Shown: positions 7,751-32,194 of the stretch, in pieces
Numbering within the stretch: the first letter of the stretch is position 1
Layout: each line of letters opens with the position of its first letter
Assembly (NCBI GenBank): GCA_963711795.1
Contig: CAVQFD010000007.1
Span: forward strand, 38,085-102,084
Length of the DNA stretch: 64,000 nucleotides
Direction: 5' to 3'
Origin: an uncultured Acidobacteriota bacterium
Lineage (GTDB): Bacteria > Acidobacteriota > Vicinamibacteria > Vicinamibacterales > CAVVIG01
The notes under the pieces: generated by a model
The model's input: the letters and a program-made list of their open reading frames with translations, nothing else
The model's database searches: none
What the model was told of the DNA's origin: nothing
Position numbers and translations under genes: made by a program

Positions 7751-8858
7751 TCAGCAGTCGAGATGCCGTCCGAGGCGCTGGCCTGTCCTTCCGTCGAAGA
7801 GATACAGACGGTCGCGGTGCAGACCAAGGCCGACCTGATCGTCAACGGCGACCGGCGTGTCCGCAGGCACCACGACGCGGACGAGCTCGGCCGTCAGGCC
7901 ATCGACTCGCACGTGAATCAGCGTCGCCGTTCCGAGCGGCTCGACTACTTCGATGGCACCGCGTGCGTCGCCCCGATCCGGCTGGGTGAGGACGACGTCG
8001 TGCGGCCGGATGCCGACGGTGATCGCTGCGCTGTCGAGGGCCGTGACGTCGTGCGGGCCGAATGCGATCGAGAAAGCCGAGCAGGTTGCCCGGGCGCGAT
8101 CGTAGGCAACCGACCAGCTGCACGGCCACAGGTTCATCGCCGGCGATCCCACGAATCCGGCCACGAACGTATTCGCCGGCTGCCGGAAGATTTCGAGCGG
8201 CGCGCCGATCTGCTCGAGGCGGCCGTCGCGCATCACCGCGATGCGGGTCCCGAGCGTCATCGCCTCCTCCTGATCATGCGTGACGTACACCATCGTCGTC
8301 GCCAGCCGCCGGTGCAGCAGCGCCAGCTCGGCGCGCATGGTCGACGCGCAGCAGCGGGTCGAGGTTCGACAGCGGCTCGTCGAGCAGGAACGCCTGCGGC
8401 TCGCGCACGATGGCGCGGCCGAGCGCCACGCGCTGACGCTGGCCGCCGGACAGCTGCGCCGGCTTGCGATCGAGCAGCGCTTCGATGCCGAGCAGCGTCG
8501 CGACGGTCGCCGACCCGCTCGTCGATCGCGTGCCGGCGTCCACGCGCCGGACCCGCAGGCCGAACGCCAGGTTCTCGCGGACGCTCTTGTGCGGATAGAG
8601 CGCGTAGCTCTGGAACACCATCGCGAGATCGCGGTCGCTGCGGCGCCACGCCGGTCACATCGCCGCCACCGATCCGGATCCGCCCGGCCGTCGGCGCCTC
8701 GAGCCCGGCGATCAGGCGCAGCACCGTGCTCTTGCCGCTGCCCGACGGCCCGACGAGACGAGCAGCTCGCCGTCGGCGATCTCGAGCGTGAGATCGCGCA
8801 CGGCATGGTGGCCATTCGGATAGACCTTGCTGACCTGGTCCAGCGTAATGGCAGCCAT
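7751..8858 (-). CDS. Sugar ABC transporter ATP-binding protein (MalK/UgpC-like), frameshifted
   Basis: [61 protein letters not shown]. Confidence 0.9.
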
Positions 8859-8859
8859 G

Positions 8860-9689
8860 TCAGCCCTTCACCGCGCCGGAGGTGAGCCCGGCGACGATAC
8901 GCCGCTGCGCCAGCAGCACGACAGCAGCGACCGGCACGCGTGGCCACGACGGCCGCGGCGAGGATCTCGCCCCACGGCACCTGATACTGGCCGCGGAAAA
9001 GCGCGATCGCCACCGGAACGGTGTAGCGTTCCGGCCCGAGCGTGAACGACAGCGCGAACAGGAACTCGTTCCAGCTGTAGAGAAACGTCAGGATCGCGGT
9101 CGTCGCCAGCCCGGGCCACGACAGCGGCAGAACGATCTCGCGCCAGCGCGCGCAGCCGGCCGGCGCCGTCCATGAACGCCGCTTCTTCGAGCTCCGCGCG
9201 GCAGCTGGCGGAAGAACCCGACGAGCAGCCAGATCGTGAGCGGCATCGCGAACGTCAGATACGGCAGCACCAGGCCGGGGTAGGTGTTGAGCAGGCCCAG
9301 CGCGCGCAGCAGCAGGTACAGCGGCGACACGATCGCGATCTGCGGGAACATCGACACCGCGAGGACGAACGCCAGCATCAGCGACTTCCCGCGGAACGGC
9401 AGCCGCGCGAGCGCGTACGCGCACAGCGCGCCGAGCGCCACCGACAGCGAACGTCGTCGCGCCGGCGACGATGAGCGAGTTGCGGATCGGCGTCCAGAAG
9501 TCGCGGTCGCCGAAGAGCGCGCGGTAGTGGTCGAGCACGAGCGCGCGCGGCAGAAGCGACGGCGCGTCCGAAGAGCCGGCTCTCCGGCGTGAGCGACGCG
9601 ACGACCGCCCAGTACAAGAGGAAAGACGATCGCGCGCCAAGCATGACGCCGCGTGACGAGCGCCACCCGTGGCGTGCTCGACGCTTCAT
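8860..9689 (-). CDS. Carbohydrate ABC transporter permease (MalG-like), frameshifted
   Basis: [36 protein letters not shown]. Confidence 0.88.
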
Positions 9690-10605
9690 CGCGATCGCTC
9701 CAGGAACGCGTCGCCGCCCGAGCAGGCGGATCGCTGCGAGCGCGCCGCACGAACGCCACGGCGAAGACGATGACCGACAGCGCCGATCCGTAGCCGAAGC
9801 GCAGGTTCTGCAGCAGCGTGCTGAACGTGTACAGCGCGATCGGCTCGGTGGCCGTGCCCGGTCCGCCGCCGGTCATCACGTAGACGACGTCGAACACGCG
9901 AAAGGCGTCGAGCGCGCGGAAGAGCAGCGCCACCAGCAGCGCCGGCTTCAGCAGCGGCAGCGTGACGTCGGTGAAGCGCTGCCAGGGCCCGGCGCCGTCC
10001 ACTTCGGCCGCCTCGTACAGCGACCGGTCGATGCTCTGCAGGCCCGCGAGCAGCAGCAGCGCGACAAACGGCGTGGTCTTCCACGCGTCGGCGAGGATGA
10101 GCGGGATCCAGGCCGAGGTCGCGTCGGCGAACCACGTGGGCGGCGTCAGTCCCGACCGCTCGAGCAATCGCGCTGGCCAGGCCGGCCGGGCTCTCGAACA
10201 TGAACCGCCAGACGAGCGCCGCGACGACGGTGGGAATCGCCCAGGGCAGCAGGACGGCCGTGCGCACGGCGCCCGCCGACCGCGACTGACGATCGAGCGC
10301 GAGCGCGAGGAGCAGCCCGGCGGCGAGCTCGAGCGAGACGGTAACCGCAGTGAAAGCAGCCGAGTGCGCCAGCGCGCTCCAGAACCGGCGATCGCCAAGC
10401 GCTTCGACGTAGTTGGCCGCGCCGACAAACGGCCGCCCGAGCCACGGCATGCGCAGATCGTGCAGATGGAGCGATTCCCAGACCGTCCAGCCAATCGGGA
10501 GCAGGGCGACGGCCGCGATCGTCGCAATGGCCGGGGATGGCGAGCGCCCACCCGAGACGTGCGCTCGCGCCGCCGCCACGCGGTCACCTGCGTCGTCTTC
10601 GTCAT
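9686..10605 (-). CDS. Carbohydrate ABC transporter permease (MalF-like), frameshifted
   Basis: LLPWAIPTVV, ADAWKTTPFVALLLLAGLQ, LYEAAEVDGA, MTGGGPG. Confidence 0.88.
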
Positions 10606-11862
10606 GCTGGCGCAGCTTCACCTTCGCCAGCAGGGCCCGCATCGCAGCCGCGGCCTCCAGGAGGGCCTCGCGTGGATCCTGCTGCCTGCGTGAGCGCTCG
10701 ATGCGAGCGAGATCTGCAGGATCTCGGAGAGCTGCGTGTAGACCGGTGTCACAGGTCGTGGAACGGCACGCTCGATGATGGCCAGCGCGTCGCCTGCCGG
10801 AATCGACAGTGCGGCCTCCAGTTCGGGCGTGCGATAGAGCGCGGGCCGCGGCGGAAACTGTCCGGCAATTCGCGCGCGCTCAATCATCTGTTCCGGCTGC
10901 AGGAGGTAGTCGACCAGACGATAGGCCGCCTCTGGCTGATCGCTGTACGCATTGATCGCCAGCGACCGATCCTCCCAGCGCGGCCGTCGGAGCCCCTCCG
11001 CGGTTCCTGGCATGGCCGCGATCCCGACGCGCCCGGCCACGGCACGACTGCGACGGCATCCTGGAGCAGCCATAGGCATACGGCCAGTTGCGCATGAACG
11101 TGGCCTGGCCGTTCTGAAAGGCGAAGCGCGTCTGCTCTTCCTGCCACGTGAGCACGGCGGGCGGCACGACGGCCTCGCCGGTGGATGCTGTCGCGCATGA
11201 ACGTCAAGCGCTCTGGTCGCGGCCTCGGAGTCCACGGCCACGCGTCCGCGGTCGTCGAGGATGCTGCCGCCAAACGCGCCCAGGTGCTCGAGAAAGACGG
11301 TCACGAGCCCTTCGTAGCGGGCACCCTGCCAGACGAAACGCAAACGGCGTCCCAGGTTGCCTGCGCGCCAGCCGCCAGCCGCACGAGATCGTCGAGATCG
11401 CGCGGCGGTCCCGGCACCAGATCGGTGCGCCAGTACAGCATGCCGACGTCGACGAACCAGGGCAGCGCGTAGAGCGCGCCTTGCCAGCGGTTCGCCGCCA
11501 GGGCGGCGGGGAAGAAATCGCCTGCCGGCGGATCGAATCGATCGAGGCTGGCGATCCAACCGGCGGCCGCGAACTCAGGCGTCCAGATCGACGTCGAGCT
11601 GCAGCACGTCGGGCTCGCTCGCGTGCGCGTTCAGCCACTGCACGTATAGCTGGTGCCGCTGGTCCGCACCATCCGGTGTCGCACGGATCGCGACGGAGAG
11701 CGGAGCGTTGGCCTGCTGGAACCGCGCGACCTGGCGCCGGATGACGTCGGACTCGAGGCCGACGACGCTGCCGGAAAAGGTGAGCGTGGGCTCTGCGGCA
11801 GGGGCACACGAAGCGGCCGCCGTCAGCAGAGCCGCCAAGATTAATCGGCGTGGGTCCAGCAT
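10602..11862 (-). CDS. Sugar ABC transporter substrate-binding lipoprotein, frameshifted
   Basis: Lipobox LTAAASC, DVLQLDV, FVWQGARYEGL, FMRNWPYAY, PRPVTPVY in several frames. Confidence 0.85.
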
Positions 11863-11957
11863 GCTGCCTGCACATTTACCAGATCCACCGGCCACCCGCC
11901 ATGCCGGTGCTAAGCTCCGCCATACTGCCTCGAGTGAGCGCAGGGGGAGAGGCATCG

Positions 11958-12839
11958 ATGAAGGACGTGAAGAAGCTGATCGAGAAGCTCAGGGTGCGTC
12001 CGGGCCAGAAGGTGTCCCTGAAGCGTCACAGGACGGACTGGACCGCGGGCGTCGAGAAGGCGGACGCGCGACAGCTCCTCGACGAAGGCGTTGCGCAACT
12101 GGCACTTCAGCAGGAGATGCTCTACGCGCAGGACACGTATGCAGTCCTCATCATTTTTCAGGCCATGGATGCGGCGGGGAAGGACGGGACGATCAAGCAC
12201 GTGATGTCCGGGATCAATCCCATGGGCTGCCAGGTCTTCAGCTTCAAGGCGCCGTCGACCGAAGAGCGGGACCATGGTTTCCTCTGGCGGTCCTCGAAGG
12301 CGCTTCCGGAGCGCGGAAGGATTGGCATCCACAACCGTTCGTACTACGAGGAAGTGCTCGTGGTCAGGGTGCACCCGGAGATCCTCCATGCGCAGCAGCT
12401 GCCGGAGCACTTGAAGGGGAGTGGCATCTGGCGTGACCGCTACCGCCAGATCAATCAGTTCGAGCGTTACCTGGTCGACAACGGGACCATCCCGATCAAG
12501 TTCTTCCTGCACGTCTCGAAGGAGGAGCAGCGGCGGCGTTTTCTCGAGCGGATCGACCGGCCGGAGAAGAACTGGAAGTTTTCCGTCAACGATGCCAGGG
12601 AGCGCGCGCGTTGGGATGACTACATGAAGGCCTACGAAGAGGCCTTGACCGAGACCACCACGAAGCACGCTCCCTGGTACATCGTCCCGGCAGACAACAA
12701 ATGGTTCACGCGCGTCGCGGTTGCCGAGATTGTCAACCAGCACCTGAAGAAACTGCGCCTGGCGTTTCCGACGGTCACTGCGGCTCGAAGGAGGGAACTG
12801 CTTCAGGCCCGGCGGACGCTGCTCGGCGAACGGCGCTGA
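11958..12839 (+). CDS. ppk2: Polyphosphate kinase 2 family protein
   Basis: Walker A FQAMDAAGKDG, NRSYYEEVL, KNWKFS, PWYIVPADNKW. Confidence 0.93.
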   Translation: MKDVKKLIEKLRVRPGQKVSLKRHRTDWTAGVEKADARQLLDEGVAQLALQQEMLYAQDTYAVLIIFQAMDAAGKDGTIKHVMSGINPMGCQVFSFKAPSTEERDHGFLWRSSKALPERGRIGIHNRSYYEEVLVVRVHPEILHAQQLPEHLKGSGIWRDRYRQINQFERYLVDNGTIPIKFFLHVSKEEQRRRFLERIDRPEKNWKFSVNDARERARWDDYMKAYEEALTETTTKHAPWYIVPADNKWFTRVAVAEIVNQHLKKLRLAFPTVTAARRRELLQARRTLLGERR

Positions 12840-14007: not shown

Positions 14008-15247
14008 CTAGTTGCCTCGTATGGTGGCCGAGAAGTTGTACTTGAACGAGAACTGCAGCTTGAGTCCTTCGCCGACGTAGGGATCCTGGAACATCTCGCG
14101 GCGGCCCCACTGCAGCTCCGCGCCGACCATCACCCCGGGCACCGGCGTGTAGAGCAGGTTGCCGAGCATGTACTGGCCCAGCCGGTACGCATCGGGGGCC
14201 TGGCCCTCCGTGTTGTCGATGTCCTGGTGCGAGTAACCCACCGCCGTCGACCACTGGCTGTTCCAGTTGTGATCCAGGAAGATCACGGTGCCGAGGAGCG
14301 GAATCGCCTCGCCTTTGATGGGCGTCACGAGGTTGCCGGGGTTGCGGACGATGCCGACGTCGACCGGCGCGTCGTTCATGTAGTTCTGGATGCCTTCGCC
14401 GTAGACCAGCTGGCCGCGGATCGTGGAGCTCGAGCCAAGCTTGATGTTCGTGCTGAAGTTGAGGCCCCAGCGCGTCGCACTGCCCGACAGGTCGAAGGCA
14501 TCGTCGCGCAGGTCATCCCACTCCATCCGGCCGAGCAGCCCCGCCACTTCGACGTAGCCCTTGGGCCCCCCATGCGGTACTCGCGCCGTGAGGTCGGGCA
14601 GCGGGATGCGCGCCCTGGACGTCCTGGAGCTCGATGCGGTCCGCGAGCAGGCCGGCGTCGCCGCTCGCGCCCGGCCGCTCGAGCGCAATGGTGAGGCGCG
14701 TGTCGCCCTGGATGGGCATACACCGCACCTGCACGTTCCGGAAGAACACCATGCCGGTCGGGCCCCAGTACTCGAGCGAGTTCGGGAAGACGTCGATGTC
14801 CATGAACGGGCTCCAGGTCTGGCCCGCCCCCCACTGGCCGAGCTCGCCGTAGGCGTGCCGCAGCCGGAACGTCGTCTGGCCTTCGTCCACGCCCGTGCCG
14901 AACATTTCGAACTCGAACGTGGTCCGCAGCTCGCCCATCGAGGTGGGCACGAAGCCCTTGACGCCCAGGCGGGTCTGGCGCACGCCGGCGAAGGTGCTCC
15001 CGTCCTCGCCGAACTCCTGGTCGAAGGACGGCAGGCGGTTGATGCGCATCGTGTCGTACCAGTTCGGGTCGATCGTCTTGAAGTTGAGGCCCATGTCGAG
15101 CATCGCAAACCCGTAGACGTCCATGCGCGGGCCCTCGGCTGCAGCCGGCTGCGCCTGCGCGGTTGACGGTGCTCCGATCAGGCCGATCAGCAGGAGCACG
15201 GCCAGACCGACGCCGCTGGCGTATCGGCAGCCCTTTCTCTGTCGCAT
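14008..15247 (-). CDS. DcaP-like outer membrane porin (frameshift near 14600)
   Basis: Signal peptide ending AQA, VYGFAMLD, RQTRLG, FEFEMFG, RLRHAYGELG, GQTWSPFMD, ELQWGRRE, LQFSFKYNF. Confidence 0.82.
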
Positions 15248-15311
15248 GTGAAATCCTCCTCGATCAGGTCGGGTCAAATCGGGTTCCACGCCCGATGCAG
15301 GTCTCGACTCA

Positions 15312-15327
15312 AGCACGGGGAATGCCA
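15312..15327 (-). promoter_or_regulatory. Putative sigma-54 promoter for the DcaP-like porin
   Basis: Minus strand TGGCATTCCCCGTGCT (GG-N10-GC), about 65 nt upstream of the start. Confidence 0.7.
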
Positions 15328-15613
15328 CCATCCTGATTCGATCGAGCCGTCAGCCAGGCACACCATTCCGGGCCTTGCGTCGTGCATGCGCACGCGGTCG
15401 ACTGCCTCGATTCGGGCGGGGCACGAAGTCCCCGAGGCACCTCTTAGCGATCCGATATTCCGGAGGATCTTCCGGTGGATGTGCAGGCTGAACGTCTCTG
15501 CCGCCCCTCTCACCGACAATCGAGTCGCTTAGTGCTGCTCTTGTCAGATAAGAATCGCGCCATCAGGATTGCCGCCGCGGAGTTCACTGTGCAAACAAAA
15601 AACCAACTTTCAG

Positions 15614-15629
15614 TGGCACATCCCGTGCA
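15614..15629 (+). promoter_or_regulatory. Putative sigma-54 promoter for the asparaginase unit
   Basis: TGGCACATCCCGTGCA (GG-N10-GC) preceded by an A-tract at 15593-15602. Confidence 0.72.
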
Positions 15630-15722
15630 CAATATGCTCACCGTGCCGCACGCAGGCGAGCACGTTCCAGTCCAGCGCGGTAAGGCGAGTGATGAGAAGC
15701 AATGATCAAACGCCAGGCGTAG

Positions 15723-16928
<1,206 letters not shown>

Positions 16929-16959
16929 GAGCGCGAGCGACTGCACAGGACTCCGGGCG

Positions 16960-18281
16960 CGAGGGGAACTGCTGAGGCGTGCGCGCGCTGGCAGGTGCCC
17001 TGGCTGGGCATCGCGTCCTGGTCGGCCCGTCCGGCAACGCGCTGGCCCAGCAGCCGGCGCAGCGACGACCGCAGCCCGATCCGTCACAACCCGCCGCCAT
17101 CGACGACACGATCACGCGGGCGAGGCCGAGAACGAGGCGCCCGCGCGGAAACTGGTGAACTGGAACGAGTACGAGGGCCGCTCGGATCGATCCGCTTCGG
17201 TGTTCGGCTTGCTGTGCGACTACGCCGACTACAGCCAGGACGACAACAGCAAGGAGCAGTTCGATCTGCTCGCCGCGGACAAGCTCAGCGACTTCCGCTT
17301 CCTGCTGTCAGGGACGCCTCAGGTTCAAGCGCCCGACGACCTGGAGCGCCGGGATCATGTACGACGCGCCAACAAGACAGTGGGTGATGCGGCAGACCGG
17401 CATCATGGTCGCCGTCCCCGAAATCTGGGGCCACATCTTCGTCGGCCGGACCAAGGAAGGCTTCTCGCTGAACAAGGTCATGATCGGGTACGGCGGGCTG
17501 GACCATGGAACGGACGCCGATGAACGACGCGACGATGCCGATCCTCGCCGACGGCATCAAGTGGCTCGGCTACGTCGCCGAAGGCGCCATGTCATCTGGA
17601 ACCTGGGGTTCTACGGGGATGCCATGTCGGAAGGGCAGACCTTCTCCACGTACGAAAACCAGGTCGCGGGCCGTGTCGCCTGGCTGCCGATGCTGTCGCC
17701 GAGACGGCGGACAATCTCCTCCACCTGGGCATGAACGCGCGCTACGGCAAGGCCAAGGACGGGCAAGATCCGCCTGCGTGCCCGGCCCGGGGCCTGGCCG
17801 GCGCCGTACTTCGATCGACACCGGGGAGTTCGCCGCGAAGAACAGCACCATGACCGGGCGTGGAGATCTACTACCGGCCGGGCCGCTTCACGATGGGTTC
17901 GGAGTACTTCTTCCAGACCGTCGACGCGCCCGAGTCCGGCGATCCGTTCTTCCACGGCGGCGACGTTTTCGCCACGTGGCTGATCACTGGTGAGACGCGC
18001 ACCTACAACACGCGCGGCGGCTACTTCAACAGATTCGCCGCAGCGCACGGTCTTCTCCGGCGGCCCCGGCGCCTGGGAGATCGTCGCGCACTATTCCTAC
18101 ACGGATCTCGACGCGCGGCACGCTGACGGGCGGCAAGTTCTGGCGATTCACGCCGATGGTGAACTGGTACCTGTCCGACAACGTGCGCCTCGAGGGCGCC
18201 TACGGCTACGGCTCGCTGAATCGTTTCGGCACCGTCGGCAAGACGCAGTTCTTCCAGACCCGCATTCAGCTTCAGCTGTAG
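16960..18281 (+). CDS. OprO/OprP-like porin, multiple frameshifts, start approximate
   Basis: Fragments FVGRTKEGFSL, MERTPMNDA, WLITGETRTYN, GAWEIVAHYSYTDL, TPMVNWYLSDNVRL, terminal TRIQLQL. Confidence 0.75.
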
Positions 18282-18444: not shown

Positions 18445-18593
18445 AAAGTCAACACGCCTGTCCACCGCGAGCCCACGTCGTCATGACTGCCTTGAGATCT
18501 GCGCATTTAGAAGTAAGAGACTGAAACAACCGTCAGCCCACTCGCGGTTCTATCGCCGGTCGGCACAAGAATTCAAAGGAGCTGGAGAAATAC

Positions 18594-20225
18594 ATGTCCA
18601 ACAATGACGACGTGAAAAACGACAACCGTGGTCCGTTCGACGGTGTGCCACAGGTGCCATCGGAAATTCCGACTGGCGTCGACCGTCGGAAATTCATCAT
18701 GCGCAGCGCCGTGATCTCGGCAGCAGCCGTGATGACCGGCTGCACGCGATCGGAGACTGAACAAAAGGCCCCGCCGCCGGCAGCCGAAGCTCCAGCGGGG
18801 TCCGCTGCGCCCTCTGTCCCGTTGGCTCCCGACTTGAACGTGGTGATGAAGGCCAAGGGCCCGGTGTTGACGACGGTGGACGAGTTCTACAAGGTGGGGC
18901 CTGGCCCTTCCAGTTCGCACACCATTGGTCCGATGCGCATCACCTACGATTTCTACCAGCGAGCCGCCGCGCTGCCGGCCGACAAAACAGCCACGGCGAC
19001 GAAGCTTCAGGTGAACCTGTTCGGAAGCCTCAGCGCGACGGGCAAGGGACACGGCACGGAACGAGCCGCGCTCGCAGGGCTGGTCGGGAAAGAGCCGGCA
19101 ACGGTTGACCCTCTGTTTCTGGATAGCCTGCGAGACAAGCCTGACCAGGTGTTCCCGGTGAAGCTGGGCGCCAAGTCCATCGATGTGAGCCTCAAGGACG
19201 TCATCTACGATGCCACCAAGGGCGACTTCAAGCACCCGAACACGATGACGGTCAAGCTCCTCGCCGGCAACGATGTGCTGCTGGAGCAGGAGTACTACTC
19301 AGTGGGCGGCGGATTCATCGAGTGGAAGGGGTATACGCCGCCGAAGAAGAACCCGCCGAAGTACCCGTTCGCGACGATGAAGGAGCTGCGCGCGCACGCC
19401 GACAACAACAAGACCACAATCGCCAAGGTCATGCTTGCCAACGAGATGTCGATCACAGGCAGATCGGAAGCGGAGGTGTATGCCTTCGTCGACAAGATCA
19501 TCAACGCGATGGTCGCGACGGTAAAGTCGGGGCTTTCGATGCCGGAAGATGACGTGCTGCCTGGTCCGATCAAGCTGCATAGCAAGGCAGCGACCGTCTA
19601 CAAGCGCGTCATGAACGACAAGATCGAATCAGACCGCGGTATCGGTGCTCTGTCGGCGTTCGCAATTGCGGCATCCGAAGAAAACGGGCGCGGCCACCTC
19701 GTGATCACCGCTCCAACCGGCGGTTCCGCCGGAGTGATGCCGGCCCTGGTCTATGGGCTGCTCCAGGTCCGGAAGGTCGAACTGCAGAAGGTCCGTGACG
19801 GCATGCTCGCCGCTGCGGCGATTGGCTATCTCTGCAAGCACCATGCGACGCTGTCTGCGGCCGAGGGTGGCTGCCAGGCGGAGATCGGCGTGGCGTCGTC
19901 GATGGCTGCCGCATTGACCGCGACCGTGTATGACGCACCATCGCTGGTAGTCGAGAACGCGGCCGAATCGGCCCTGGAACATCACCTCGGCATGACATGC
20001 GACCCGGTCGCCGGTTACGTGCAGGTTCCGTGCATCGAGCGCTGCGCCTTCGGCGCGGTCAAGGCCTGGACGGCCTTCGCGATCGCCAGCAACGAGATCG
20101 CGTCCAGGCACCGTGTCAGCTTCGACGAGACCGTACTGGCACTGGCCCAGACCGCGAAAGAGATGAACAGCAAGTACAAGGAAACAAGCGAGGCTGGTCT
20201 CGCTCTCTCCGTCGTGCTCTGTTGA
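18594..20225 (+). CDS. sdaA: Fe-S L-serine ammonia-lyase (single-chain SdaA type) with N-terminal Tat lipoprotein signal
   Basis: KVGPGPSSSHTIGPM, LFGSLSATGKGHGT, YSVGGGFI, APTGGSAGV, GGCQAEIG, LGMTCDPVAGYVQVPCIER; N-terminal DRRKFI...AAAVMTGC. Confidence 0.95.
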   Translation: MSNNDDVKNDNRGPFDGVPQVPSEIPTGVDRRKFIMRSAVISAAAVMTGCTRSETEQKAPPPAAEAPAGSAAPSVPLAPDLNVVMKAKGPVLTTVDEFYKVGPGPSSSHTIGPMRITYDFYQRAAALPADKTATATKLQVNLFGSLSATGKGHGTERAALAGLVGKEPATVDPLFLDSLRDKPDQVFPVKLGAKSIDVSLKDVIYDATKGDFKHPNTMTVKLLAGNDVLLEQEYYSVGGGFIEWKGYTPPKKNPPKYPFATMKELRAHADNNKTTIAKVMLANEMSITGRSEAEVYAFVDKIINAMVATVKSGLSMPEDDVLPGPIKLHSKAATVYKRVMNDKIESDRGIGALSAFAIAASEENGRGHLVITAPTGGSAGVMPALVYGLLQVRKVELQKVRDGMLAAAAIGYLCKHHATLSAAEGGCQAEIGVASSMAAALTATVYDAPSLVVENAAESALEHHLGMTCDPVAGYVQVPCIERCAFGAVKAWTAFAIASNEIASRHRVSFDETVLALAQTAKEMNSKYKETSEAGLALSVVLC

Positions 20226-20277: not shown

Positions 20278-20390
20278 TTCACTTCTTCCCGGCGATGGCT
20301 CGCCAACTCACGGGCTACTCCATCGCTTCGTGAGTGTCGCAGGCCCTGTACTCCAAACAAAACGGATTGGCTCCGGGAGGGCGATTAAAC

Positions 20391-21765
20391 GTGTCGATAC
20401 CCCGTGCATTCACGGCTTCGGTCGCATTGGCGTTGACGTTCGTTCCGTTGCTCGCGACTCCTGCCTCCGGACAGTCTCCTGCAGCCCCGCCAGACAGCAC
20501 CGTCGCCGTTTCAGAAGACACAGCAAAGTACTTCAGTGCAGGCGGCATCCGCTGCCGCACCACCGGCAAACGACGATCGTTACAGAGATGGAATTGTCAT
20601 CTGGGAAACGCCTGCAGACGCCCAGGTGCCTTTCCTGTTGCGATTCAACATCAACACCCAGCTCCGATATCTGAATACACTTTCGTCGGACGAAACTTAC
20701 ACCGACCATCTCGGCGTTGTCCGTGAAGTTAACAGGCGCAACGACATCACGGTCAATCGCGCGATGTTCATCCTGGGCGGTTACATTTTCGACCAGAGGG
20801 CGCGATACAGCTTCACGGTCTGGACGTCCGCAGGGGCCGCCTCGATCATCGTCGCCTCGAACATTGGCTGGCAATTCCACAGGGCCCTGACGGTCACTGC
20901 GGGTTACACCGGGGTTCCAGGCAGTCGATCGCTGGTCAACACATTTCCATTTTTTCAGGCGATCGACCGGACCATGTCGGATAACTTCTTCCGTCCCGGC
21001 TTCACCCAGGGCGCCTGGGCCAACGGAGAAGTCGTGACGAACCTGCACTATCTGGCGTTCGTCGGCAACGGTCTCAATACCTTGAATATCTCGGCGACCA
21101 AGATCGATTCGAATCTGCTCACGTCCGGAAGTGTCTGGTGGGAACCGATGGGACCCTACGGAGAACCGGGCAAATCACGAAACATGTACGACGACTATTT
21201 CTCCTCCAGGAAGGCTCGTATTCGAATTGGCACCTCGTTTACGAGGTCGCGCGAGGACCGTTTCTCGAATCTCGATCAATCAAGTCCTGAGAACACCTCA
21301 CTGTACAATTCCGACGGCGTGCTGACCTTTTCGACCGGAGCGTTTGCGCCGGGCGTAACGGTCGACAAGGCGTTGTACAAGATGTGGGCCGTCGACGCCG
21401 GCATCAAATGGAACGGGCTCGCGGTCAACGGGCGGTACTTCACGCGCTGGCTCGGTGATTTCGTCGCCACCGAACGGCTTGAGCTCGAGTCCACGTTTGA
21501 CCACGGCATTGAGTGGACAGCGGGTCATTTCGTAATTCCCAGGAAGCTCCAGGTGTATGGCCGCGGGGGCCACGTCTTCGGACACTTTGGCGACTCTTCC
21601 GAGTATGGCGGCGGGGTCAGGTGGTATTACCTGCCGACCGAGCGACTGTGGCTCAACCCGGAGCTGCTCCGGGTCAACAAAGCTCCTTACAGCGGCGCCT
21701 TTACCCCGTATACGGCGGGTCTCAACGGGTGGGTGCCGATGCTGCAGGTGGTCCTCGCCTTTTAA
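20391..21765 (+). CDS. Hypothetical outer-membrane beta-barrel protein (frameshift near 20530)
   Basis: Signal peptide in one frame, then aromatic-rich amphipathic strands and C-terminal Phe (LQVVLAF). Confidence 0.7.
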
Positions 21766-28054: not shown

Positions 28055-29884
28055 TCAGGACGCGGTTCGCACGTACTCGTCCACGTTTCGCGCCAGCACA
28101 TCGAGCGGCACGTTGCCGCCGAGCACGACGGTGTCGTTGAATGCCTTGACGTCGAACCGCCCGCCGAGCTTCGTCGTTGCCAGCTCGCGTTGACGGTTGA
28201 TCTCGCTGTGTCCCACTTTGTAGCCGCAGGCCTGCCCGGGCCATGAGCAATAGCGGTCCACCTCGCTCGACACTTCCAGCGGGTTCGACCCGTTCATCTC
28301 GACGAAGAACTGCACGCCCTGCTCCCGCGTCCAGCCCTTGACGTGAATCCCCGTATCCACCACCAGGCGGCACGCACGGAAGGCGATCGACTGCAGATAC
28401 CCGAGACGCCCGACGGGTTCGCTGTCGTACGCGCCGAGCTCGTCGGCCAGCTGCTCGGCGTACAGGCCCCACCCTTCCGAAAACGCGTTGAAGGCAAGCA
28501 ACTGTCTGACGAGCGGCATATCGTGCGTGTACTCGCCCTGCCAGATGTGGCCGGGAATCGATTCGTGGAACGCCAGGTCGGCGAGGCTGTACCTGCTGTG
28601 GAGGTCGGTCGTGCTCAGGTTTATCCAGAAGCGTCCGGGGATCTTCCCGTCGATGGACCCGGCGCCCCCGTACGCGGCTGGAGCGCCTGGCTCCTCCTCG
28701 GGCGGCAGGCGCCTGACTTCCATGTTCGGGTTGACGACGGTGTTGAAGGCGCGGGGCATTTGCGAGCGGATCCAGCCGAGGCGTTCCTGGATGAACGCCA
28801 TGATCTCGGCGCGGCCCTTGTCGCCGTCCGGGAATTGATACTTCGGATCCTTGGCCAGCGCGTTCATCCGTTCGCCGACCGCTCCCCGCGAATAACCGAT
28901 CCCCTTCAGAATCCCGTCCATTTGTGCGTGGAGCCGCTCCAGCTCGCTCAGGCCCATCGCATGGACCTCGTCGGGCGTCATCCCAGTGGTCGTCGAGGCT
29001 TTGAGCGCCCAGCGGTAATAGTCCTGGCCGTGCGGTCGCGCCCCCATCCCGGCGTCGATGGTTGCCACGTTACGCTGTGCCTGCAGCTCCGCGATCTGCC
29101 GCTCGAGCGCCGGCGCAACCTCCTGTGCCGCGATCGTCCGCGCGCGCACGGCCCAGTTGCCAGGGATCTCTTTCGTGCGCCTTGCAAGGGACTCGACGAG
29201 CACGCCGCCATCGCGGGCATTCCTCACCGACGCACCCATCTGCGCCAGGGCCTTGTCGATCAGAAACGCGGGGGGAACCAGGCCCGCGCCCCGCGCCGCC
29301 TGCATGCGGCCCAACTCGCCATCGAGCTGCCTGGCGTAGGACTGGACGCGAGCCAGGTAGGCCTCCGCATCGGCGGCGTTCTCGATTTGATGATCGCTAT
29401 CGAGAAAGCGGGGCACGTCGAGATACGCGCCCACGTTCTGGATGACGACGTAGGGCGTGTTGCGCCAGCCGCCGACGGCCACATCGCCGTAGGGAAGCGC
29501 GAAACCCTGCACCGCTGTCGCGTAGGCGCTTCGAACGACCTCGACGCTGGTCCGGGTGTTGTGGGAGAGGCCCGAGGTGTCGAGGGCACTCGCCCGCTCG
29601 AGATCCCGCTTCAGCTGCGACACCATCTGCTGCTGGCCGGCAGCCGAGCGATCGGAGAGCTGTCCGCGAAGGCCGGCTCGTGCACCCGTGTCGATGCCCA
29701 GTGAGGTCGCGCTCTCCGGTGCCAGCCGCAGCAGGTTCTCGCCGATGTCGTCGAGCAGCGCGCGCGCGTCCGCGTCGCTGGCCGCCGCCGGCGCGACGCC
29801 GGCGCGCTCGGCGCTGCACCCGGACGCGAACGGCAGGACCGTGGTCGACGCCAGTGCCAAGAGAGCGTCTCGGCGGCTGATCAA
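28055..29884 (-). CDS. DUF885 family putative metallopeptidase, Tat lipoprotein (start uncertain)
   Basis: SRRDAL...ASGC, HESIPGH, EGWGLYAE, RLVVDTGIH, PGQACGYKVG. Confidence 0.9.
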   Translation of the reverse strand: MISRRDALLALASTTVLPFASGCSAERAGVAPAAASDADARALLDDIGENLLRLAPESATSLGIDTGARAGLRGQLSDRSAAGQQQMVSQLKRDLERASALDTSGLSHNTRTSVEVVRSAYATAVQGFALPYGDVAVGGWRNTPYVVIQNVGAYLDVPRFLDSDHQIENAADAEAYLARVQSYARQLDGELGRMQAARGAGLVPPAFLIDKALAQMGASVRNARDGGVLVESLARRTKEIPGNWAVRARTIAAQEVAPALERQIAELQAQRNVATIDAGMGARPHGQDYYRWALKASTTTGMTPDEVHAMGLSELERLHAQMDGILKGIGYSRGAVGERMNALAKDPKYQFPDGDKGRAEIMAFIQERLGWIRSQMPRAFNTVVNPNMEVRRLPPEEEPGAPAAYGGAGSIDGKIPGRFWINLSTTDLHSRYSLADLAFHESIPGHIWQGEYTHDMPLVRQLLAFNAFSEGWGLYAEQLADELGAYDSEPVGRLGYLQSIAFRACRLVVDTGIHVKGWTREQGVQFFVEMNGSNPLEVSSEVDRYCSWPGQACGYKVGHSEINRQRELATTKLGGRFDVKAFNDTVVLGGNVPLDVLARNVDEYVRTAS

Positions 29885-29894
29885 GGCCTGACGG

Positions 29895-29959
29895 GGCAGG
29901 GAAGGCAGGCCGGGCGGGCAGGGCAGGCGGGGCGGGTAGGGCGGGTAGGGCTGGCGGGG
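29895..29959. repeat. G-rich 9-nt tandem repeat, about 7 units
   Basis: GGCAGGGAA GGCAGGCCG GGCGGGCAG GGCAGGCGG GGCGGGTAG GGCGGGTAG GGCTGGCGG. Confidence 0.75.
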
Positions 29960-30005
29960 TTTTCTCATCACGAACATTCTAAACGGCGGCACTCCGCCGC
30001 CTGGC

Positions 30006-30391: not shown

Positions 30392-32194
30392 TCAGCTGCC
30401 GGAAGCGATCCAGGCGTCGATCTCGCGAGCCAGCACGTCGAGAGGGACATCGCCCGTGCGAAGCACCACGTTGTGAAATTCCTTGACCGAAAACTTCGGC
30501 CCCATCGCGGCACGCGCTTTTTCGCGCAGCTCGACGATTCGCAGCTGGCCGATCATGTAGGCGCACGCCTGGCCCGGCCACACGACGTAGCGCTCGACTT
30601 CCTGGGCGTTGATGCCGTAGTCGATCGCCTGCTGGCGCGTCCACCGCTTCGCGTGGATACCGGTGTCGACCACCAGGCGGCGCGCGCGAAACAGCATGCT
30701 GTTCAGATATCCAAGACGACCGTGCTGGTCGCCTTCGTACCAGCCGTTCTCGTCTGCCAGCCGTTCGGCGTAGAGCGCCCAGCCTTCGACGAATGCGGAG
30801 CCGGCGCTGACGGCGCCGCGGGTCCGGAAGCGAGGGAGATCGGTCATTTCCTGCTGGAGCGCGAGCTGAAAGTGATGCCCGGGCACGGCCTCGTGATAGC
30901 TGAGCGATCGCGTTCGGAGCAGACCATAAGTCGGGCCCGGGAGTGGGAGCCAATAGACGCCGGGCCGGGTGCCGTCAGGCGCCGGCGTGGTGTAGTGGGC
31001 AGCAGCGGTCCGCTCCGAGAATGCGGGCTCGCGGCGGACGTCCACGGGAGCCTTGGGCCGCAGGTCGAACACCTGCGCCGCCCGCCGCTCGGCATCACGC
31101 ACCCATTTCTCGTTTTCCGCCAGGATGGCAGGCCGTGGGTCCCCGGGCCCTTTCGGTTGGAGGGTCGCCTCCAGCTGCTCGTACCGGGCATTGACGGTCC
31201 CGTTCGTGAAGCCGAGTTGCTTGAGGATCGCGTCCATCTCGCCCTCGAGGCGCGCGACTTCCCTCAAACCAATCGCGTGAATCTCGTCCGGCGTGAGGCT
31301 GGTCGTCGTCATGGCCTTGAGCGACTGCGCATAGAACGCGTCGCCTCTCGTCAGGCGCCACACGCCGGCATCGTCGGTCGCTTTGGGGAGCTGCCCGGCC
31401 AGGAAGTCACGGACGCGGCGGTAGGCAGGGAGGACGTTCTCGCCCGTCGTCTTCTCGGCAGCCGCGACGAAGCTCGCGCGGTCGCCCGGCGGGATGGCCT
31501 CACCCAACGCGCCGATTCGCTCGTCGAAGGTCGTCACGAAGACGTTCTGCCTGGGAGCATTCTTCAGGAAGCCGTCGATCTGATCGACCGTGCGCTGCAG
31601 GATGAAGCGCGGAGCCACGATGTTTGCCTCGACTCCCGCTCGTGCTTCTGAAATGCCCTGGTCGATGAGCGGCCCCACGAGAGCGAGCCGCACGAGATAG
31701 TTCTCGATGTCCCGCCGCTGTCGGATCGGATGCCCCTGCGTCAGATGGTTGGCGAGATCGAGGTGCATGCCGTTGAACTGGTCGTAGACGTAGTTGTGCG
31801 TGGCGAACTCCGCCGAGCCGACCGTATCTTCGAGTGCCCATCGGAGCAGCGCGGCCGACGTCCGCTGAATCGGCGTCAAGGAATCCGCGGGGATACCGGC
31901 AAGCTCCTCGAGCCCGCGGCGCGCGAGCACGGCACGCCGTGCGGCGCTGGTGGGGCCGAAAGGGACGCCCCACTCGCCAACGAGCGACAGCTGCCGATCG
32001 AGGGCGTCCTGCTCGTCGCCGGAGAAGTACTGCGTCCGCGTGGCGAACTGGGGCGCCTCGCGCATCCAGTCCTGGACGAAGGTCTCGGACCAATCGTCGA
32101 ACGACAGACCCGGAGCCATCGCCGTGGGCGGCGGACTGCCGCAGCCGGCACAAGTGGCGATAGCCAGTACGAATGCGGGGATCGCAGTGCGCAT
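30392..32194 (-). CDS. DUF885 family putative metallopeptidase, lipoprotein
   Basis: Lipobox CAGC, HEAVPGHH, EGWALYAE, RLVVDTGIH, PGQACAYMIG. Confidence 0.92.
   Translation of the reverse strand: MRTAIPAFVLAIATCAGCGSPPPTAMAPGLSFDDWSETFVQDWMREAPQFATRTQYFSGDEQDALDRQLSLVGEWGVPFGPTSAARRAVLARRGLEELAGIPADSLTPIQRTSAALLRWALEDTVGSAEFATHNYVYDQFNGMHLDLANHLTQGHPIRQRRDIENYLVRLALVGPLIDQGISEARAGVEANIVAPRFILQRTVDQIDGFLKNAPRQNVFVTTFDERIGALGEAIPPGDRASFVAAAEKTTGENVLPAYRRVRDFLAGQLPKATDDAGVWRLTRGDAFYAQSLKAMTTTSLTPDEIHAIGLREVARLEGEMDAILKQLGFTNGTVNARYEQLEATLQPKGPGDPRPAILAENEKWVRDAERRAAQVFDLRPKAPVDVRREPAFSERTAAAHYTTPAPDGTRPGVYWLPLPGPTYGLLRTRSLSYHEAVPGHHFQLALQQEMTDLPRFRTRGAVSAGSAFVEGWALYAERLADENGWYEGDQHGRLGYLNSMLFRARRLVVDTGIHAKRWTRQQAIDYGINAQEVERYVVWPGQACAYMIGQLRIVELREKARAAMGPKFSVKEFHNVVLRTGDVPLDVLAREIDAWIASGS

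Follow-up and report, generated by a model that had tools for sequence, protein, structure and literature searches.

Characterized L-serine dehydratases of the SdaA/SdaB/TdcG type are cytoplasmic, and, to our knowledge, the iron-sulfur (Fe-S) serine dehydratases (SDHs) have so far been regarded as oxygen-sensitive enzymes of the cytoplasm. The catabolism of amino acids known from the periplasm is mainly the work of hydrolases, e.g., asparaginase. The twin-arginine translocation (Tat) system exports such proteins as the hydrogenase small subunit, NrfC, and the Rieske protein, and Tat lipoproteins are known from actinobacteria and haloarchaea. Here, we analyze a stretch of 64,000 nucleotides, hereafter the window, from contig CAVQFD010000007.1 of an uncultured Acidobacteriota bacterium of soil. 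It contains, at 18594..20225 on the plus strand, a whole gene for a 543-aa precursor of an Fe-S L-serine ammonia-lyase with a predicted N-terminal export signal (coordinates are window positions on the plus strand unless stated otherwise). We propose, with a probability of about 0.65, that this type 2 [4Fe-4S] L-serine ammonia-lyase is made as a twin-arginine precursor and exported by Tat. Export, lipidation, the substrate, and the cargo of an MFS transporter encoded nearby at related loci are what we infer from the comparisons below.

The closest described enzymes are the type 2 SDHs, namely Legionella pneumophila LSD (PDB entry 4RQO) and Escherichia coli SdaA, SdaB, and TdcG. The window protein shares with them the cysteines, the histidine, the C-terminal cysteine, and the fold, and, like 4RQO, it combines a beta and an alpha domain in a single chain. 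It differs in having a Tat-type extension of about 92 residues, a lipobox-like cysteine, and a tether, as well as the clade-wide substitutions N484C, N376G, and R330S. Similar to Tat-dependent proteins that receive their cofactors in the cytoplasm, members of this group have a long n-region, an RR-x-F-hydrophobic motif, a short and weakly hydrophobic h-region, and a basic c-region or a lipobox. In contrast to the known Fe-S cargoes of Tat, the putative cargo in the window belongs to the hydro-lyases and has a dehydratase-type cluster exposed to substrate; it is not an electron-transfer protein. The motif also deviates from the common form, with Asp instead of Ser or Thr at position -1 and a subthreshold score with the TIGR01409 profile.

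By family and by catalytic residues, the gene product is a type 2 [4Fe-4S] L-serine ammonia-lyase, with its activity predicted. The TIGR00720 profile (sda_mono, single-chain L-serine ammonia-lyase) matches residues 95-540 over profile positions 3-450 of 450 and scores 395.4 bits against a cut-off of 345.1. The Pfam domains SDH_beta (residues 97-245; 18882..19328; 137.8 bits) and SDH_alpha (residues 272-537; 19407..20204; 218.5 bits) cover the same region. The former includes the proposed catalytic base H153 (19050-19052), and the latter contains C427 of GGCQ (19872-19874), C469 of TCDP (19998-20000), and C480 of PCIER (20031-20033). These three cysteines are invariant in an alignment of 71 sequences, in which H153 and the C-terminal C543 (20220..20222) are nearly so; all 120 near homologs end in Cys. 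PDB entry 4RQO aligns to residues 89-542 (E = 1.2e-88, 40-41% identity). The AlphaFold2 model built from the same 71-sequence alignment, with a mean predicted local distance difference test (pLDDT) value of 84.9, matches 4rqo_A with E = 5.4e-28 and a target-normalized template modeling (TM) score of 0.89. In the passages of PMC12647591 devoted to the Legionella enzyme, the equivalents of the three cysteines are cluster ligands, His61 is the catalytic base, and Cys458 is the fourth cluster ligand and an intrinsic inhibitor; Cys543 is the equivalent of Cys458, and H153 was matched to His61 by a hand count on the 4RQO alignment. An initial reading of the letters and their translation, referred to below as the sequence-only reading, described a complete SdaA with three Fe-S cysteines, and the full-profile match together with the invariance of C427, C469, and C480 bears this out.

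The family profiles start only at residue 95-97, and about 92 extra residues lie N-terminal to the enzyme. The extension opens with a long acidic n-region (residues 1-29; 18594..18680), in which P26 is nearly invariant and G28 invariant among relatives. The twin-arginine motif D30-R31-R32-K33-F34-I35-M36-R37 (18681..18704) follows, with D, RR, and F invariant in 81 aligned N-termini, and then an h-region of 12 uncharged residues, S38-AVISAAAVMT-G49 (18705..18740). Next come Cys50 (TGC; 18741..18743) of the lipobox-like V-M-T-G-C, a proposed site of lipidation and signal peptidase II (SPII) cleavage, and a Pro/Ala-rich linker (residues 51-88; 18744..18857) of variable length among relatives, whose Pro/Ala-rich part, residues 51-80, is read in the translation. 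The order of elements is thus DRRKFIMR, then SAVISAAAVMTG, then Cys50, then the Pro/Ala linker. In the AlphaFold2 model, a lone helix at residues 31-44 stands in an otherwise disordered segment 1-88, with pLDDT below 50 across residues 40-85.

Several profile and motif searches relate this segment to Tat signals. The window extension conforms to the RR-x-F/L-hydrophobic motif rule and has at least 12 uncharged residues (S38-G49) before C50, as in the h-region length rule for Tat signals known as the TATFIND rule. In an NCBIfam scan of 81 N-termini, TIGR01409 (TAT_signal) was the commonest match (62 of 81 at E<=1, the best at 1e-4), and the formate-dehydrogenase Tat region TIGR02811 was found in 60. 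When TIGR01409 was re-scanned on 18 of the 81, four N-termini reached the cut-off (16.8-22.5 bits) and five more scored 14.1-16.4 bits. The sequence-only reading had noted about 90 additional residues comprising D30-RRKFI, a hydrophobic stretch, C50, and a Pro/Ala linker. All of these are read directly from the translation, and Tat-signal anatomy, judged from the alignments, is kept throughout the signal-bearing clade described below.

The SDH gene is one intact frame of 543 codons, and its ATG is the first start codon past the upstream in-frame stop. The Shine-Dalgarno-like words AAAGGAG and GGAG are read at 18575..18587 ahead of it, with GGAG at 18584-18587, 6 nt 5' of the ATG (18594). The 120 best homologs (84-100% identical, 530-561 aa) all have a comparable extension; RR is found in 119 of them, and most share the start and the N-terminus MSN(R/K)(D/E)D. 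A scan of species-representative genomes yielded 80 related loci, whose best segments are 68-93% identical. The majority are labeled Acidobacteriota (Vicinamibacteria, Pyrinomonadaceae, Terriglobia, Bryobacteraceae), and a few lie in metagenome-assembled genomes (MAGs) with the binning labels, possibly wrong, of Gammaproteobacteria, Steroidobacteraceae, Verrucomicrobiia, Phycisphaerae, or a Nitrospir- or cyanobacterium. When the paralog from the window genome itself is added, D-R-R-x-F stands at an equal distance from the enzyme in 80 of 81 loci, a count that overstates the support, as the relatives are not independent. In the sole exception (L058), the frame is broken just upstream of the SDH motif. 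Across the 81 aligned N-termini, G28, D30, R31, R32, and F34 are invariant, and P26 and R37 almost so.

The codons of D30, R31, R32, and F34 in the 80 loci show 188 synonymous and no non-synonymous differences from the window. Given this ratio and the invariant motif, the extension is, on comparative evidence, translated and under purifying selection, and a wrong start or a fusion artifact is excluded. We therefore rejected a frameshift fusion and a mis-called start, both of which are ruled out by the intact frame, the recurrence of D-R-R-x-F in 80 of 81 loci, and the synonymous-only codon change. The claim of an intact reading frame in the sequence-only reading agrees with the single 543-codon frame and the conservation of the extension in relatives, and translation from a site downstream of RR, which that reading had considered, is contradicted by codon conservation at RR in 80 loci. 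As a separate observation, the conservation of P26, G28, and D30 (18669-18683) exceeds what the Tat consensus usually includes, and these residues might indicate where a dedicated chaperone binds; no gene for such a chaperone recurs in the neighborhoods examined.

The cleavage region occurs in two forms. One, found in 35 of 81 diverse members, is a (T/N/S/A)-G-C box immediately after the h-region. The other 46 have no Cys and carry G-(R/K/Q/S)-x-x-S-A-(Q/E) instead, with an AxA-like site in 42 of them (VSA in 21, ISA in 9, MSA in 4, and others) and a basic residue in the c-region in 38. A basic residue in this region is a "Sec-avoidance" feature of Tat signals. The Cys and AxA types interchange on the tree, with seven changes, at least three to four of which are forced by well-supported branches. 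The pattern looks like interchangeable sites for SPII and signal peptidase I (SPI), and such interchange behind a constant RR would be difficult to account for if the peptide did not function as an export signal. This interchange, as seen in the alignments, is the strongest comparative argument for an export signal.

The part of the proposal that concerns the lipid anchor is more complicated. Cys50 is kept in 118 of 120 near homologs by pattern; of the two misses, P0076 has the Cys without RR, and in P0063 a Ser replaces Cys50. The boxes of near homologs are mediocre as lipoboxes, with VMNGC in 100 of 120 and MTNC in 2 of 120; according to the PROSITE lipobox rule, Asn at -2 is not canonical, whereas the VMTGC of the window fits. 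The lipid anchor suggested by the sequence-only reading is therefore partly supported, with the Cys kept in near relatives and absent from 46 of 81 diverse members. An alternative is that Tat exports the protein without lipidation, with SPI cleaving the signal or the uncut N-terminus acting as the anchor, and with another role or none for Cys50. The Cys-less members with AxA-like sites, the predominance of Asn at -2, and the single Ser-for-Cys replacement favor it. It is nevertheless rather unlikely for the window protein, as the Cys of near homologs always occupies the G-C position right after the h-region, the Pro/Ala tether that follows is of a kind typical for lipoproteins, the genome encodes Lgt and LspA, and VMTGC fits the rule.

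A quick maximum-likelihood tree was built for 104 SDH cores: 29 signal-bearing ones (loci and window), P0121, three other signal-bearing proteins, and 71 signal-less representatives. The signal-bearing rows of the window lineage fall on one branch with a support of 100 in the Shimodaira-Hasegawa-like approximate likelihood ratio test (SH-aLRT) and a stem length of 0.43, so the phylogeny suggested in the sequence-only reading did recover a signal-bearing clade. This clade is mostly from Acidobacteriota and also includes the fragmentary long-branch P0188, which we had labeled signal-less since its sequence begins with the SDH motif. Sister to the clade is P0130 plus P0147, with an SH-aLRT of only 82%, and one or two origins of the signal are indistinguishable. 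P0129, with its DRRDFCK... signal, has no resolved place among the signal-less rows and keeps PCIERN. P0130 comes from Desulfovibrionaceae MAGs and P0129 from a Syntrophales MAG. The N-termini of P0130, P0147, and P0129 (LRRTFLK..., HKRCFLK...ALGC, DRRDFCK...) are RR/KR-type signals on complete SDHs, which are 38-43% identical to the window SDH; the signals are shorter than that of the window and unrelated to it in sequence. Thus, export-type signals appear to occur on SDHs in two or three lineages, of which the window lineage is by far the largest seen.

We also searched 150 evenly sampled genomes of the phylum with a completeness of 90% or more; matches of 59-75% identity were found in four (G145, G040, G122, and G034), a count that rests partly on the unpublished genome G145. 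Near-full-length matches of 37-41% identity were found in about 30 of the 150. Both kinds are present in G034 and G122, where the 37-38% copy aligns only from query residue 94-98 and has open frames of 466-482 aa. The co-occurrence in these two genomes suggests that the high-identity copy is not redundant with the 37-38% one.

The genome of the window encodes components of the machinery that the proposed processing would need. TatC (211.2 bits) is on contig C2, and Lgt (199.3 bits) and LspA (140.3 bits) are adjacent on contig C5; of the Tat and lipoprotein apparatus implied by the sequence-only reading, these three genes are thus present. A genome-wide motif scan for Tat signals gave 102 matches, 39 of them N-terminal, which is a modest enrichment (38% versus 20% expected); about 15-20 of the 39 look by eye like clear Tat-type signals, and one of these has a lipobox. 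The two SDH_alpha genes detected in the genome both bear the signal; no signal-less SDH_alpha gene was found there. The second SDH copy is 67% identical, has the signal DRRAFLMR...VMTGC, and heads an SDH-MFS-Pta-AckA row on contig C5 (893917-901216 with flanks). Genes for DUF2950 and DUF3300 lie beside it on the opposite strand; upstream is a sigma-54 activator gene. Pyruvate formate-lyase was not found in the window genome, which is 81.6% complete.

The conserved neighbor is an outer-membrane porin with an OprP/OprO-like fold, ending in ...LAF, located downstream of the SDH gene at 20334..21765; its signal-peptide part (from 20334) and its barrel (20536-21765) are in different frames. Of the 80 related loci, 31 have a porin 54-81% identical to it, in most cases immediately downstream of the SDH gene. 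Members of this family begin with a Sec-type signal and end in ...LAF, and many have a coiled-coil stretch in the N-terminal part. No Pfam family was found at E<=1 with clean sequences, and neither Pfam nor NCBIfam has a model for the family. One representative that we initially took for the porin, the open reading frame (ORF) L015:10487-11773, is a chimera of a porin C-terminus and a wrong-frame tail, and its results (no family; Porin_O_P 0.91) were discounted. The model of the partner porin is a beta-barrel (pLDDT 73.9), and its best solved matches are the anion-specific OprP (2o4v; E = 5.9e-12, TM 0.59) and OprO (4rjw), with general porins ranking lower. By its fold and its presence in 31 of 80 loci, this neighbor fits the periplasmic location proposed in the sequence-only reading.

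Neighbor genes were counted in the regions of the 80 loci and the window by a crude ORF call and clustering, with SDH recognized in 72 of 81 regions; the counts are minima, as frameshifted long-read MAGs split genes. A porin-like gene is the immediate neighbor of SDH in 44 of the 72 regions, where one family merges the OprP/O-like "...LAF" and the DcaP-like porins and the count means any porin-like gene. An MFS transporter gene is present in 15 regions, directly downstream in 12. Other neighbors are Pta (16 regions), AckA (16), PflB (13; 1115 bits versus a cut-off of 994), PflA (10), DUF2950 (13), DUF3300 (10), Amidohydro_2 (10), AspA (8; 648 bits versus 510), asparaginase (5), and DcuA/B (3). 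A larger recurrent cluster (e.g., in L049, L037, and L067) combines Amidohydro_2, DUF3300, DUF2950, AspA, in some cases DcuA/B and asparaginase, porin, SDH, MFS, Pta, AckA, PflB, and PflA, and it resembles a compact module for using asparagine, aspartate, and serine anaerobically.

Two described systems resemble this arrangement. As in the E. coli tdcABCDEFG and sdaCB operons, SDH stands beside a transporter, an acyl kinase, and pyruvate formate-lyase (SDH-MFS-Pta-AckA in the paralog, with PflB-PflA added in relatives); in contrast to them, the transporter is of the MFS rather than the TdcC/SdaC type, the SDH bears a signal, and a porin gene belongs to the set. The second is the AnsB, DcuA, and AspA system, in which nitrogen is released in the periplasm and the organic anion is then imported; in some loci considered here, the Sec-type asparaginase, AspA, and DcuA/B share clusters with SDH. 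AnsB, unlike the window enzyme, is a cofactor-free hydrolase exported by Sec, whereas here the enzyme is an Fe-S lyase with predicted Tat export.

A number of observations weigh against export. The TIGR01409 match in the window protein (residues 29-49) scores 13.0-13.2 bits, under the cut-off of 16.7; a Pfam scan of residues 1-95 at E<=10 gave no family; and 9 of the 18 re-scanned relatives have no TIGR01409 match at E<=0.05. To these are added the non-independence of the loci and the uneven lipobox discussed above. Dehydratase-type [4Fe-4S] clusters are oxygen-labile, and we know of no periplasmic system for their repair. The products of the neighboring pta, ackA, pflB, and pflA genes act in the cytoplasm, so a periplasmic SDH needs a pyruvate importer; this is the main weakness of the model. 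The MFS protein is assigned at the level of the superfamily, as its best matches are anion:cation symporter models (TIGR00893, 61-83 bits) far under their cut-offs, and sequence comparison with solved structures gave no match. This transporter could equally import serine for a cytoplasmic SDH.

This last point is the core of an alternative in which SDH stays in the cytoplasm, the MFS protein imports serine, and the RR extension is either vestigial or re-used as a chaperone site for cofactor loading or as a tether on the inner face of the membrane. An analogy is provided by NarG, where a remnant Tat motif serves as a chaperone-binding site. The cytoplasmic use of pyruvate by Pta, AckA, PflB, and PflA, the subthreshold TIGR01409 score, and the conservation of P26, G28, and D30 beyond the Tat consensus, as might be expected if a specific partner bound there, all speak for it. 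Vestigial signals, however, are known to lose the h-region and the cleavage site, whereas here the uncharged h-region is kept and a Cys or an AxA-like site is present in 77 of 81 members (35 plus 42). Moreover, the conserved neighbor is an outer-membrane porin, no TorD/NarJ-type gene is among the recurrent neighbor families, and the serine importers known to us (SdaC/TdcC, SstT, CycA) are not MFS proteins. We consider this scenario unlikely, since retention of an h-region and of two alternative cleavage sites is not expected in a vestige that is not exported.

A further scenario is dual localization, in which an internal start at M85 or at the GTG codon of V91 would additionally produce a cytoplasmic SDH of about 453-459 aa feeding Pta and AckA. 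V91 is encoded by GTG in 60 of the 78 sequences with Val there, compared with 38% GTG among Val codons overall, a start at V91 leaves an N-terminus as long as that of signal-less SDHs, and AAGG-like words precede it. The GTG bias is not special, as V91 ranks third for GTG among 23 conserved Val columns (columns 476 and 228 are higher); the AAGG words follow from conserved Lys-Gly codons, kinship inflates the counts, and M85 is replaced by Lys, Gln, or Thr in most relatives. Dual localization therefore seems very improbable. Finally, an annotation artifact, with a downstream start and the extension being an untranslated leader or a long-read assembly error, is hardly credible: although genes next to SDH are split among several frames and the genome is 81.6% complete in nine contigs, 80 of 81 loci from other assemblies, some of them built from short reads, retain the extension at the protein level, D30, R31, R32, and F34 show synonymous-only change, most near homologs share the start and N-terminus, and a Shine-Dalgarno-like word precedes the ATG.

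Members of the clade also differ from other SDHs in the enzyme itself. We compared 15 clade members, two rows of a second Tat-type group (P0130 and P0147), P0129, and 53 signal-less representatives in one alignment. Position 484 is Asn in 53 of 53 signal-less proteins and Cys in 15 of 15 clade members; P0130 and P0147 also have Cys there, as PCISRC, and P0129 has Asn. At position 376, within APTNG, the signal-less proteins have Asn in 43 of 53 cases, the clade has Gly in 15 of 15, P0130 and P0147 have Ala, and P0129 has Leu; thus, P0130, P0147, and P0129 all lack the Asn of APTNG. Position 330 is Arg in 51 of 53 signal-less proteins, in P0130 and P0147, and in P0129, and Ser (14) or Thr (1) in the clade. 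The change of PCIERN to PCIERC, pointed out in the sequence-only reading for the window, is also seen in 120 of 120 near homologs. Cys484 (20043..20045) lies four residues past the ligand C480 in the same predicted helix (477-500) and, according to the model, should face the same side. Because the clade and P0130/P0147 are possibly of one origin, the link between N484C and the signal may rest on a single event.

The suggestion of cysteine as an alternative substrate finds no support here. The TIGR00720 equivalog cut-off is passed, and kinship with the L-cysteine desulfidase CyuA is distant: CyuA structures match the SDH model with 12% identity and a query-normalized TM score of about 0.4, versus 41% and 0.73 for 4RQO. 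In the relevant part of PMC12647591, the catalytic Cys23 and Glu25 of CyuA are described as not conserved in SdaA/B.

The most economical model is that of a periplasmic SDH exported by Tat and, in the sub-clade of the window, probably lipid-anchored. According to this model, SDH would fold and acquire its cluster in the cytoplasm, Tat would recognize D-R-R-K-F-I-M-R and export the folded protein, and in the window sub-clade Lgt and LspA would process it at V-M-T-G/C50. The enzyme would then hang from a membrane in the periplasm by a Pro/Ala tether of about 35 residues. L-serine entering through the OprP/OprO-like porin would be converted to pyruvate and ammonium, which the cell would then take up. 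At loci with MFS-Pta-AckA (the paralog, and relatives that add PflB and PflA), SDH would act in the periplasm as the entry step of a serine-to-acetate fermentation. The route from pyruvate to acetate would yield ATP; where PflBA is present, it would be fermentative, a mode of life that would also suit an oxygen-labile cluster.

A broader and more tentative interpretation, which we regard as possible rather than probable, is that a whole clade of [4Fe-4S] SDHs, mostly in Acidobacteriota, has moved to the periplasm for an "outside-in" fermentation of amino acids, with a dedicated porin, a Tat-exported enzyme, and an organic-anion MFS transporter importing pyruvate for Pta/AckA/PflBA. If so, ammonium and the reactive 2-aminoacrylate would be kept away from the pyridoxal 5'-phosphate (PLP) enzymes of the cytoplasm. 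The substitutions N484C, one helical turn past C480, and N376G would then be adaptations to the new compartment. Possible consequences are better shielding or altered ligation of the cluster, or a change of substrate; given the anion-type porin, the new substrate might be an anionic serine derivative.

Other genes of the window show a different state of preservation. At 14008-18130 and 20334-20600, neighbor genes are split over at least two frames, while the 1.6-kb SDH gene between them is intact. The split genes are a DcaP-like porin farther upstream on the minus strand, a type II asparaginase with a Sec-type signal upstream of SDH, in at least four reading-frame pieces (15852..16892), porin-like pieces in several frames (17155..18130; the appearance is by eye, and the piece tested had no Pfam match), and the 5' part of the downstream porin gene. 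The likely explanation is indel errors in long reads, given an assembly of nine contigs and 81.6% completeness, with real pseudogenes as the alternative. The downstream porin is followed by an ABM-domain gene and a sigma-54 activator gene. Elsewhere in the window, ORFs of ATP-binding cassette (ABC) transporters at 7751-10605 look fused or shifted, a PPK2 polyphosphate kinase gene is at 11850-12839, and two adjacent DUF885 paralogs are on the minus strand at 28055-29992 and 30392-32194 (503 and 483 bits).

Full-text literature searches, in which papers with co-occurring terms were mostly judged by title or abstract and supplements were excluded, gave no description of an exported SDH. In PMC5082522, one of these papers, the two co-occurring terms are unrelated. 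The enzyme family and the signal type are each well known, whereas their combination with a conserved porin and cluster-proximal substitutions was not found in these searches. Public annotation names the clade proteins plainly "L-serine ammonia-lyase" or "L-serine dehydratase", and metabolic reconstructions consequently place the reaction in the cytoplasm.

If the proposed export is true, a dehydratase-type Fe-S enzyme joins the cargoes of Tat, and how such a cluster survives outside the cytoplasm becomes a question. N484C provides a defined site for enzymology. The finding would also suggest a route by which the abundant Acidobacteriota of soil may harvest free serine for carbon, ATP, and ammonium.

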